A DNA stretch of 64,000 nucleotides from Escherichia phage vB_EcoM_FJ1. A program made the translations under genes and the position numbers. Position 1 is the stretch's first letter; each line of letters starts with the position of its first letter. The notes beneath the pieces are model-generated. The model ran no database searches. It saw only the letters and a list, made by a program, of their open reading frames with translations, and had not been told where the DNA came from. The stretch lies in sequence record MZ170040.1; one strand, given 5' to 3'. Below are positions 12,994 through 44,046 of this stretch, piece after piece.

Positions 12994-13326
12994 TTATTTT
13001 ACTACTTTCCAATGCTGCATGTCAAGTTTACCAACTTTTTTCATCTTCTCAATTAAGCGTTCGGCACGTTGGCGAGCTGTAACATAATACCATTCACCTA
13101 ATTCATTTTGTTCAATTTTTCCAACGATTACTGTATTCAATTCATAAATCCAACCAGTAAAGAAATTATGAACTTGAATTGTAAAGGTGAAATCTGTTCC
13201 CATACCTTCTGTTGTTTCTACTTCAATAATATCACCTTCAACTGCCATTAAGAACCACATAGTTTCATCATATTTACCATTGAAGCATTTAGTTTTAACT
13301 GCAGCGTTCAGATTAATCGTTTTCAT
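12994..13326 (-). CDS. hypothetical protein
   Basis: 110-aa ORF preceded by early promoter with stem-loop in spacer. Confidence 0.6.
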   Translation of the reverse strand: MKTINLNAAVKTKCFNGKYDETMWFLMAVEGDIIEVETTEGMGTDFTFTIQVHNFFTGWIYELNTVIVGKIEQNELGEWYYVTARQRAERLIEKMKKVGKLDMQHWKVVK

Positions 13327-13436
13327 TTTATTCTCCTTTGTTTGTGTAAGATAATACTATCACAAAGGAACCATACTGTAAACAACTTTATGCAATCTTT
13401 GGAAAATAAAAAAGGACTCCCGAAGGAGTCCTCAAC

Positions 13437-13613
13437 TTATGCTTTCTGCTTACCAAAACGAGAAGCATCATCTCGAAGAACCGCACGTGCTCGGCGCATG
13501 ATCTTCTCAACAGTTTGATTGATACGAGAGTTCGACCCACGCTTGTAGCCAGCGCGTTTAGAATCACCAACTTTCTTTTCAACTGCTTTCTTTGCTTTAG
13601 CTTGTTTTGCCAT
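13437..13613 (-). CDS. hypothetical basic protein (Lys/Arg-rich)
   Basis: ORF track 13437-13655; likely start at internal ATG 13613 (MAKQAKAKK...), 58 aa; hairpin GGACTCCCGAAGGAGTCC downstream. Confidence 0.5.
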   Translation of the reverse strand: MAKQAKAKKAVEKKVGDSKRAGYKRGSNSRINQTVEKIMRRARAVLRDDASRFGKQKA

Positions 13614-14011
13614 TATAAATTCTCTTTTAAATGAAAATGCAGGACTTATTGGCATTGCCTGCGCAAGCCCTCAAGGGGAACATAGGTTTTTGGATATTTA
13701 ACGACCAGGATAACCATAAACCCGTCATCATACCTTATAGCTCTTATCTGTTGCACACCGTTAGCTTAAAGGTTCCGGGTTCGATTTCTCGAGGATAAGA
13801 TATATACTGATGGATATATAGGCCTTGAGGCGTACTCCCGATTGGCCATCACCTCGGGGTAGCATGCACTTGCCGCTATAAGAATAACATTCAAGAGGTA
13901 CACCGTAAAACTGCCGGGGTCTTAAAACTATAATGATTCGCAAATCATTAATCAGACAGTTCGACGGCTCCTCGATTTTAGCTCACACTAAGGCAGTGAA
14001 TCTCCAGTAAA

Positions 14012-14260
14012 TTACTTCAGTGTTACCACAAAGTGACGAACTGCTTTTCGTGCAGCAGAAGCCAGAGGCTTAGCATATTTAAGTTCATCTTTTTCCTGAA
14101 GCTCAGCAGCTAATGCAGTTTGAGCAGGATTCAGATGTTTGAAATAACGCAGGATTTCAAGAGCTTCGGCTTCAACATCAATAGATGCGCCATAGTTTTC
14201 GTGACCATTATTCCATGCGTTTCGTTGCAGTTCAAGAGCGTGTTGTAATTGTTTAATCAT
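14012..14260 (-). CDS. rIII: lysis inhibition accessory protein rIII
   Basis: 82 aa as T4 rIII; position between 30.x cluster and gene 31. Confidence 0.85.
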   Translation of the reverse strand: MIKQLQHALELQRNAWNNGHENYGASIDVEAEALEILRYFKHLNPAQTALAAELQEKDELKYAKPLASAARKAVRHFVVTLK

Positions 14261-14407: not shown

Positions 14408-14743
14408 TCACTTATAAAGACACGGAATAGCTTTATAGTGACAGGTAACAAATTTTTGTTTAATTTCTTTTGGCTGCTTAAGACCCAGAGCTACAAAAGG
14501 ATGCGGAACATTTCGAATTTGACCAACTGGGAGAGAAGTCAAATCACCAACTTCGCAGAAACCTTCAGGAACATCAGGACCGACAGAGTGAATTACACAC
14601 AGTTCAGGAACTTCACCTTGAACACGTTTACCGATAATAAGTCCTGATTCTGTAACTTCTTCATCACCGGCTTGTGCAGGTTCAGAAACTAAAATAACAT
14701 ATTCACCGACAGCACGAATTGGTAGCTGTTGTACTTCAGACAT
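14408..14743 (-). CDS. 31: co-chaperonin gp31 (GroES analogue for capsid folding)
   Basis: 111 aa as T4 gp31; synteny. Confidence 0.85.
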
Positions 14744-43239: not shown

Positions 43240-44046
43240 ATGGCAATTGTAGGTGTTCCTGGCTGGATTGGCGAATCTGCCGTGAATGAAACTGGACAAC
43301 GTTGGATGGATGCTGCGATGAGAGCAGTTCGTGTTTCAGTTCCCGGTTGGATGAGTTCAATGGCAGGAAAGTCAGTTGAAAAAGCTTATTCAATTGGCTC
43401 AAATCATTCATATAATAAAGATACTTTAATTAATTGGCTTAAATCAATTGGAACAGCTCCTGCTGTTGTAACAATAACAGGAGATATTGTTTCTAGTTCT
43501 TCAACTATTCCGTGCTTAGATTTTCCTAGTTCATTAACTAATGAATATGTGACATTGATTATTAACTCTGGCGTTACTGTTTATGGCCGAGGAGGTAATG
43601 GATCTGGATCTAGTGGAGGTTCTGGAGATGCTTTAGTTCGAGCAACTGCTGGTGGTACAGCGATTAATAATGGTATTGGTACACGCTTACGTATTACGAA
43701 TAATGGCGCAATTGCTGGCGGCGGTGGTGGCGGCGGTGGTTGGTCCGTAGATTATAACTTCACATTAGGTAATGTTGCTGGTGGTGGAGGCGGACGTCCT
43801 TTCGGTACTGGTGGTCGAGGTGGTCGAGGTAATGGTGGTAATGCATCGTTAACCGCCGCAGGTGGTAAAGTAACTGTTGATGGTAATAACATGAGTGGTG
43901 CGGGTGGTAATGTTGGCTCAGCTGGTGGCGCTGCTGTTCGTACATCAAACTTTCAAACTAGTGGCGCTGGCGCTGCGGGTAAAGCTGTTACCGGAAATGC
44001 CCCAACATGGACTAAGGTTGGTACAATATACGGTTCAAGAGTATAA
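43240..44046 (+). CDS. 38: tail fibre tip adhesin gp38 (T2-type, glycine-rich motifs)
   Basis: 268 aa; conserved N-terminal region then poly-Gly blocks separating variable segments. Confidence 0.85.
   Translation: MAIVGVPGWIGESAVNETGQRWMDAAMRAVRVSVPGWMSSMAGKSVEKAYSIGSNHSYNKDTLINWLKSIGTAPAVVTITGDIVSSSSTIPCLDFPSSLTNEYVTLIINSGVTVYGRGGNGSGSSGGSGDALVRATAGGTAINNGIGTRLRITNNGAIAGGGGGGGGWSVDYNFTLGNVAGGGGGRPFGTGGRGGRGNGGNASLTAAGGKVTVDGNNMSGAGGNVGSAGGAAVRTSNFQTSGAGAAGKAVTGNAPTWTKVGTIYGSRV

Follow-up and report, generated by a model that had tools for sequence, protein, structure and literature searches.

The manA, wcaG and PhotoRC motifs of T4-like cyanophages and other phages, together with the larger GOLLD and ROOL RNAs, are covariation-supported intergenic folds with a patchy distribution and no established function. 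Phage T4 itself encodes rnaC and rnaD (species 1 and 2 RNAs), which are 119-139 nucleotides (nt) long and non-coding, are embedded in a longer transcript, carry tRNA-like 3′ domains and have an unexplained function. The SAM-I (S-box) and cobalamin aptamers are built from a closing helix P1, a four-way junction and a bent-back arm with long-range loop pairing, and self-cleaving ribozymes of the hammerhead, twister, twister-sister, hatchet and pistol types are common in phage intergenic regions. In T4-type genomes, module shuffling is mediated by PeSL (promoter-early plus stem-loop) cassettes (PMC2839356, PMC4122927), consisting of a terminator followed by a promoter with the consensus TTTACW-N17-TAYWAT (PMC4122927). 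Here we describe an element in the genome of Escherichia phage vB_EcoM_FJ1 (record MZ170040.1), of which a stretch of 64,000 nt with an overall G+C content of 35.9% was analysed (the window). The element lies between the genes rIII and 30.9 at positions 13734-13882, and its minus strand encodes an autonomously folding RNA of a previously undescribed family.

The structure was derived by eye from the compensatory changes in an alignment of distinct sequences (A3) and was then built into a covariance model, R1. The model matches the window at 13734-13882 over its full length (180.6 bits, E = 3e-38) and nowhere else in the 64 kb. Four helices, P1, P2, P4 and P5, meet in a four-way junction with zero unpaired bases, and two of the loops pair with each other. 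The parts are as follows:

13734-13882, minus strand: the whole structured RNA, 149 nt (CUUAUAGCGGCAAGUGCAUGCUACCCCGAGGUGAUGGCCAAUCGGGAGUACGCCUCAAGGCCUAUAUAUCCAUCAGUAUAUAUCUUAUCCUCGAGAAAUCGAACCCGGAACCUUUAAGCUAACGGUGUGCAACAGAUAAGAGCUAUAAG), in which RNA position i is window position 13883-i
13875-13882, minus strand: 5′ strand of P1 (CUUAUAGC), pairing with 13734-13741 (RNA 1-8/142-149)
13734-13741, minus strand: 3′ strand of P1 (GCUAUAAG)
13821-13874, minus strand: the P2-P3 arm, with its proposed hinge
13872-13874 with 13821-13823, minus strand: P2, GGC with GCC (RNA 9-11/60-62)
13864-13871 opposite 13824-13829, minus strand: purine-rich internal loop of the P2-P3 arm, AAGUGCAU opposite CUCAAG
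13854-13863 with 13830-13841, minus strand: P3, with two bulges (RNA 20-29/42-53)
13842-13853, minus strand: L3, the 12-nt loop of P3
13846-13851, minus strand: kissing-loop strand within L3, UGAUGG, pairing with 13808-13813
13801-13820, minus strand: P4 hairpin, stem 13815-13820 with 13801-13806 (RNA 63-68/77-82)
13807-13814, minus strand: L4, the 8-nt loop of P4, in which CCAUCA (13808-13813) kisses L3
13742-13800, minus strand: P5 arm, which splits into P5a and P5b around a junction strand (three-way junction)
13794-13800 with 13742-13748, minus strand: P5, UCUUAUC with GAUAAGA (RNA 83-89/135-141)
13781-13792, minus strand: P5a, a hairpin of 4 base pairs (bp) with a GNRA loop, GAAA, at 13785-13788
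13776-13779 with 13756-13760, minus strand: P5b, a 4-bp stem with a 15-nt loop at 13761-13775
13749-13755, minus strand: junction strand of the P5 arm, UGCAACA

The helices are preserved by compensation among the members of the family. In P1, all seven counted pairs change on both sides, and the sequence is wholly different among genera while always remaining complementary (CUUAUAGC/GCUAUAAG, AUAAAC/GUUUA, AUUGUAG/CUACGAU and others). Both sides also change in 8 of the 10 pairs of P3, where 99.7% of cells pair, and in three of the six pairs of P4, where pairing is complete (100% of cells). Covariation extends to five of the seven pairs of P5 and three of the four of P5a. P5b is invariant among the members found next to rIII, and it covaries between the divergent copies of the phages JC221 and Olmo described below (CCCG/CGG versus CCUG/CAG), whereas P2 is invariant save for one G·U pair. 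Most rIII-type members have GAAA, GUAA or UAAA as the tetraloop of P5a, with UAAU in L023, and the loop of P5b has conserved flanks around a variable center.

L3 and L4 form a kissing interaction of six base pairs, for which seven mutually complementary versions occur among the members, including:

UGAUGG:CCAUCA, in the window and T4-type relatives
CGAUGG:CCAUCG, in Klebsiella, Edwardsiella, Enterobacter and Citrobacter phages
CUAUGG:CCAUAG, in the Muldoon type
CAAUGA:UCAUUG, in Cronus and EcS1
UUGUAUU:AAUACAA, in JC221
UGCAUU:AAUGCA, in Olmo

A search for further covarying column pairs turned up only the sixth pair of this kissing interaction. A pairing of UGCA with UGCA between the internal loop and the junction strand was considered and dropped, as it is broken without compensation in Cronus, EcS1 and JC221.

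Conservation is highest at unpaired bases, namely those of the junction and of the internal loop. The family is marked by the conserved blocks GGCAAGKGCAUG, CCYGGAMCC and GCUAACRGUGWGCAACRG, and the window has every helix as well as the kissing pair. Bases of the internal loop in the P2-P3 arm are nearly invariant, and the junction strand UGCAACA carries a single substitution in the family, U128A in Cronus. Since the loop of P3 must reach the loop of P4, the geometry suggests that the internal loop acts as a sharp hinge. By eye, it does not fit the K-turn consensus.

To quantify the pairing, the 41 matches to R1, 31 of them distinct, were re-aligned (A4). With the kissing loop included, 97.2% of 1424 cells form standard pairs, compared with 30-42% in controls in which the partners were slid by 1-3 columns. 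Of the 46 pairs, 28 change on both sides, compared with 5-8 in the slid controls, and none of 500 shuffles reaches the observed values.

The sense of the RNA follows from the same alignment. Minus-strand reading of the helices gives 26 G·U cells and one A·C cell (an A·C being a G·U on the plus strand), and the P5a tetraloop is of the GNRA type on the minus strand only, reading UUUC on the plus strand. Both features argue that the RNA is of minus sense and runs from rIII toward 30.9. RNAalifold folds both strands, but on the plus strand the variable non-Watson-Crick cells in good helices are all C·A, and an additional plus-strand helix ('P2b') was discarded since it relies on plus-strand G·U pairs. 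We hold with high confidence that the element is a structured RNA, one of several possibilities that the original prediction, made from the DNA letters, had raised for this gap: it is a 149-nt fold whose helices and kissing loop are kept by compensatory changes across genera.

The element is new at the level of RNA families. Rfam 15 (4227 covariance models) has no match in the whole window at gathering thresholds, nor, at E values up to 10, anything overlapping 13734-13882 when segments of 1.1 kb and 186 nt were searched; searches of JC221, Olmo, Cronus, EcS1, EnC15 and KLB31 likewise returned nothing on the element. This search had been proposed along with the original prediction; it identified no known family, and conserved structure was found nonetheless. 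ARAGORN reports 0 tRNA or tmRNA (transfer-messenger RNA) genes in the window. A tRNA-like T-arm (GGTTCGATT) was set aside since it lies on the plus strand, which is the wrong one, is unconserved (other genera have GGGTCCGATT) and receives no support from ARAGORN. Weak Rfam matches to Atu_C8 and Phe_leader at 13398-13481 merely reflect the terminator after 30.9. No description of this RNA was found in the full-text literature searched, which did not extend to a 2026 preprint, possibly relevant, about the mining of non-coding elements.

Nearest in kind are the orphan phage motifs, together with T4 rnaC and rnaD. The element resembles manA, wcaG, PhotoRC, GOLLD and ROOL in being a conserved intergenic phage fold of patchy occurrence, but it differs from them in matching no Rfam 15 model, in the enterobacterial hosts of its phages and in its combination of a four-way junction with a kissing loop in 149 nt. 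Like rnaC and rnaD it is a small non-coding RNA of T-even phages; their locus, however, is the tRNA cluster of T4, a phage without the element, and R1 run with filters off on T4 69500-74500, which holds the tRNA genes, rnaC and rnaD, gives a best score of 3.5 bits (E = 2.8).

Nearest in architecture are the SAM-I and cobalamin aptamers, with which the element shares the closing P1, the four-way junction and the arm bent back by long-range loop pairing. The P5 stem, CUUAUC/GAUAAG, also resembles a typical S-box P1, a likeness that serves as a lead only. The Rfam models for SAM, SAM-IV, cobalamin and the AdoCbl variant are nevertheless unmatched at E values up to 10; the element pairs loop to loop with an adjacent hairpin rather than loop to junction, and it has no expression platform. 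Thus, the aptamer-like fold is present, but neither a terminator nor a pairing with a ribosome-binding site adjoins P1, and the flanks differ between genera.

The hairpin, twister-sister, hammerhead and Varkud satellite ribozymes are of similar size and likewise combine a junction with conservation in an internal loop and a tertiary contact between loops, but no model of a self-cleaving ribozyme matches, the element displays no recognised conserved signature of a catalytic core, and cleavage would be a conjecture here. As with PeSL cassettes, the element behaves as a shuffled module in a plastic region: near-identical phages differ in having or lacking it, and genera differ in how it is ordered with respect to a neighboring hairpin module. 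It differs in containing neither the terminator hairpin nor the promoter of a PeSL; no promoter-like or terminator-like site occurs within 13614-14011, and the PeSL of this locus lies after 30.9. The element therefore belongs to none of the known systems with which it was compared, departing from each on every testable point of membership.

Nor does the element encode a protein. In each of the six frames only 0-1 of the 31 members is free of stop codons, and members differ in length by +1, -3, +5, +7 and +9 nt, with frame-breaking insertions and deletions among them. Some records call short 'hypothetical proteins' over it (U115_218, of 60 amino acids (aa) with a TTG start, COW86c_228, VASOGTKW_CDS0048, Olmo_15-17 and PhiKpNIH-6), but the frames are not conserved and the calls, both at 13761-13943 on the minus strand and at the homologous places, are probably spurious. 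Identity of the window to Klebsiella/Edwardsiella phages is 89-91% in the element, compared with 72-78% in rIII, 69-74% in gene 31 and 78-89% in 30.9. Conservation of the element thus exceeds that of rIII and gp31 and, by a small margin, that of 30.9. A sequence in decay would behave in the opposite way, and the element is a conserved functional module rather than a decaying remnant.

The window derives from a Tequatrovirus (T4-like) genome; its segment 13400-14300 is 100% identical to Escherichia phage vB_EcoM_SP1 and matches many further phages at >99% identity. The genes around the element are:

12994-13326, minus strand: 30.8
13437-13613, minus strand: 30.9, 58 aa (phrog_1427)
14012-14260, minus strand: rIII (phrog_1457)
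14408-14743, minus strand: gene 31

The list of open reading frames (ORFs) also holds a 72-aa version of 30.9 that starts at 13655 (13437-13655, minus strand). The start at 13613 is preferred on account of the T4 annotation and the conserved N terminus MAKQAKAKK, and the gap between rIII and 30.9 accordingly grows to 398 nt (13614-14011). The original prediction had described a non-coding island at 13656-14011; its non-coding character holds, but its boundary at 13656 came from the extended ORF start, which is unused in the T4 annotation. The accompanying remark that gaps elsewhere are below 100 nt is only roughly true, as 110 nt separate 30.8 from 30.9 and 147 nt separate rIII from gene 31. 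The GC-rich core of about 64% that had drawn attention to the island is real: the 55-mer at 13822-13876, which belongs to the element, has 63.6% G+C and is the maximum of the window. The only other 55-mers with ≥63% G+C lie at 43696-43831 on the plus strand and are coding, within a 268-aa ORF at 43240-44046. The product of 30.9 is a very basic protein that belongs to a PHROG of unknown function and for which a Pfam family was not found.

The element is carried by 407 phage records, from T4-like phages of enterobacteria; vB_EcoM_SP1, JS10, 'Paracelsus' of the BASEL collection and Klebsiella phage JD18 are among the carriers. In phages of Klebsiella (Jiaodavirus), Edwardsiella/Klebsiella (Kanagawavirus), Enterobacter (Karamvirus) and Citrobacter, identity over the core of the block is 94-96%, and the position is between rIII and 30.9 in every case. 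Identity over the core falls to 70-85% in Serratia phage Muldoon, Erwinia phages Cronus and COW86c, and E. coli phage EcS1. In the approximately 220 records listed of about 400, it is never annotated as RNA. Matches in metagenomes are all to T4-like contigs apart from one chance match (L039); two further sequences (L024 and L025) were also judged chance matches and not family members. A relaxed-pattern search of IMG/VR for more members recovered Cronus only, 5,426 E. coli genomes gave no match to the element, and a 20-nt pattern gave none in 185,579 species genomes.

In other phages the same site is empty. T4 is collinear with the window on both sides of the gap but lacks a block of ~157 nt, so that the comparison with T4 and other T-even phages suggested in the original prediction finds an empty site in T4 and the block in other T4-like phages. 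Where the window reads AATGT-[157 nt]-ATGATGACG, T4 and an IMG/VR phage (L050), the RIII protein of which is 100% identical to that of the window, read AATGT-GA-ATGATGACG. BLAST of the element against T4 finds the flanks only, and R1 finds nothing at the T4 rIII locus with filters off. Such a clean junction marks the block as an insertion/deletion polymorphism among near-identical phages. Among 40 IMG/VR rIII loci, 25 are without the element, including five with a 100% identical RIII. The suggestion of a foreign insertion remnant was thus correct with regard to an insertion or deletion relative to T4, but not with regard to a remnant in decay.

The site 3′ of rIII is a hotspot for gene-content change. 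In two IMG/VR sequences with a distant rIII locus (L079, at 1755-2117, and L084, at the corresponding place), a 120-aa ORF and then a 157-aa ORF follow rIII directly, replacing the RNA and 30.9. Comparison by tblastn shows no similarity between the 120-aa ORF and the island at E values up to 100, and an origin of the island from a degraded gene was rejected; the ORF that follows rIII in these distant relatives is unrelated to it.

A divergent subfamily occupies a second locus in Yersinia phage JC221 and Klebsiella phage Olmo (Pseudotevenvirus):

L045 1187-1342, minus strand: copy in JC221 (R1, 109 bits)
L092 1485-1638, minus strand: copy in Olmo (R1, 99 bits)

Both copies keep every helix. They lie between uvsY.-2, at the end of the uvsY operon, and the convergent uvsW.1, with no 30.9 homologue nearby and no credible ORF downstream. 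GenBank calls short ORFs over both, and a late-promoter-like sequence, CATAAATA, was noted by eye directly 5′ of the JC221 copy.

At the rIII locus, neither a sigma-70-type promoter nor an intrinsic terminator is called beside the element in the window, and none is called beside it in JC221 or a Klebsiella phage; the promoter scan covered the sigma-70 type only, T4 middle and late promoters being outside it. As no promoter or terminator flanks the element and the next terminator follows 30.9, the element would lie within the transcribed rIII-30.9 spacer and appears to be part of the rIII-30.9 transcription unit. The terminator 3′ of 30.9 is the end of this unit. Neighboring features in and around the spacer are:

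13412-13433, minus strand: strong intrinsic terminator 3′ of 30.9 (GAGGACTCCTTCGGGAGTCCTT plus a T-run)
13382-13354, minus strand: early-promoter-like TTTACA-17-TAGTAT, after the 30.9 terminator and before 30.8
13931-13950, minus strand: 8-bp AT-rich hairpin 3′ of rIII (TAATGATT / AATCATTA), outside the element and given as context
13685-13715, minus strand: imperfect hairpin with the conserved loop CGUUAAAUAU (GGUUAUCC..CGUUAAAUAUCC.AAAACC), read by eye

The first two form a PeSL-like terminator-promoter pair (13433-13354) that fits the published consensus (PMC4122927) and represents a textbook cassette. The hairpin at 13931-13950 is the one that the original prediction had combined with the GC-rich core. 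The 8-bp stem exists, but its loop has 4 nt (CGCA on the plus strand, UGCG on the minus strand) and not the five of 'TGCGA', in which one stem base had been counted twice. It occurs identically in T4, which lacks the element, and is therefore separate from it; the two do not form the combination that had been suggested. No terminator is called at this hairpin.

The hairpin with the CGUUAAAUAU loop recurs in the rIII-30.9 spacer of several genera. It stands 3′ of the element in the window and 5′ of it, on the opposite side, in Klebsiella phages, and no promoter is called at 13685-13715. A smaller hairpin, CCC-(UUGA/UUUGA/UAUG)-GGG, is found at 13668-13677 on the minus strand, mostly followed by UAC on the plus strand. 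It adjoins the element in many genera (including L003, L004, L020, L021 and L045), 5′ or 3′ of it by case, and no U-tract follows it.

Taken as a whole, we consider it moderately probable that the element is a new 149-nt folded RNA that serves as an accessory, relocatable module and acts as a self-contained RNA. The invariant bases are unpaired ones, in the hinge loop and the junction, whereas the surroundings and the locus vary, which suggests that the folded RNA is itself the functional unit. We would guess that this accessory RNA either has a binding partner or is catalytic. It would offer a specific pocket or surface to a partner, which may be a small ligand or a protein of the host or the phage, or it may process itself; it could be released from the 3′ part of the upstream message or act within it, rather than serve as a leader dedicated to 30.9. 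Of the mechanistic sub-cases, a trans-acting or partner-binding RNA seems somewhat likelier than the others. As the element is a patchy, dispensable and yet strongly constrained accessory module of T-even phages, the likeliest biological role would be in host takeover or counter-defence.

Several points weigh against this interpretation. A4 was fitted to the R1 structure, so its pair counts are biased toward that structure, although the MAFFT alignments A2 and A3 display the same compensations. The members come from one narrow group of related phages, and conservation partly reflects shared ancestry, for which the shuffle control is uncorrected. The folding energy of the single sequence is unremarkable (z = -1.6). 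Expression, ends and stability of the RNA are deduced from position only. Finally, 40 of the 42 distinct instances fetched lie upstream of 30.9 in the same orientation; this could reflect a role in cis on 30.9 in the main subfamily, but the arrangement could equally be inherited synteny.

The alternative that survives best, though we regard it as unlikely, is a new class of ribozyme that cleaves or processes itself and would cut the polycistronic transcript 3′ of rIII or of the uvsY operon, so separating or destabilising segments of the message. The compact fold, with several junctions, a tertiary contact between loops and its highest conservation in the internal loop and junction, would suit a ribozyme, as would a phage intergenic position without a consistent downstream gene and a patchy distribution. 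However, no ribozyme model in Rfam 15 matches even at E values up to 10, the hammerhead CUGANGA/GAAA core is not visible by eye on the RNA strand and no cleavage site can be named.

Somewhat less likely still is a leader acting in cis, as a riboswitch or as an operator bound by a protein, that would govern read-through into 30.9 or its translation. Throughout the main subfamily the element precedes 30.9 and shares its strand and transcription unit, and the four-way junction with its fold-back loop contact gives the RNA an aptamer-like architecture, broadly like that of the SAM-I or cobalamin riboswitches. On the other hand, the JC221 and Olmo copies sit in a convergent region after the uvsY operon with neither 30.9 nor any other credible gene downstream, which makes a dedicated 30.9 leader unlikely. 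Even in the main subfamily, the distance from the element to the 30.9 start ranges from 67 to ~180 nt with differing intervening modules and no conserved expression platform. The spacing on the other side varies too, with 4-26 nt between the rIII stop codon and P1 in Citrobacter phages, Cronus and EcS1 and 112-129 nt in the window and Klebsiella phages, and the flanks of the element are not conserved among genera. Moreover, no terminator adjoins P1, no riboswitch family matches, and 30.9 is expressed without the element in T4 and in phages with identical flanks.

A function at the level of DNA is very improbable, whether as an origin of replication, as a signal for recombination or packaging or as structured single-stranded DNA. 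The original prediction had listed an origin-like element, and the site is indeed an insertion/deletion hotspot between conserved genes, but we found nothing in favor of an origin: the G·U asymmetry, which duplex DNA would not produce, and the GNRA loops indicate a minus-strand transcript, and T4 replicates and packages its DNA without the element. Double-stranded DNA would also have no need for GNRA loops, bulges or a 6-bp loop-loop pairing kept by compensation; since G·T forms in DNA as well, a single-stranded DNA fold retains a slight residual chance.

Least probable of all, and already largely refuted, is a decaying remnant of a protein gene or foreign insertion, or a small-protein gene, without RNA function, for which the short ORFs called in several records and the 120-aa ORF at the equivalent place in L079 and L084 might speak, but no frame is open across members, that ORF lacks similarity to the island, and the element outdoes its neighboring genes in conservation while evolving by paired compensatory changes.

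Returning to the interpretation of an accessory, self-contained RNA, a more specific version is possible, which we put forward tentatively. The element may be the founding member of a new class of T4-like phage RNAs, being either a new self-cleaving ribozyme or a stand-alone aptamer that captures a host molecule for counter-defence or takeover. The captured molecule could be, for example, an immune signalling nucleotide or a protein of defence or RNA metabolism. Such a class would explain the strong constraint on the element together with its dispensability, patchiness and mobility between loci.

Complex folds with junctions, loop-loop contacts and invariant unpaired bases are characteristic of riboswitches, ribozymes and RNAs that bind proteins specifically, and new classes of these are, to our knowledge, rare. 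T4-like phages are the most intensively studied bacterial viruses, yet the element is absent from Rfam and, in the ~220 records listed, is unannotated or called as small 'hypothetical proteins'. At a minimum, annotation pipelines should cease to call ORFs over it. Nature also provides near-isogenic pairs with and without the element, as the site is empty in T4 and filled in close relatives, including phages of the BASEL collection. If the element is indeed an RNA of counter-defence or takeover, the T-even repertoire would gain a factor made of RNA alone, which could matter for the choice and engineering of therapy phages against E. coli, Klebsiella, Shigella and Enterobacter.

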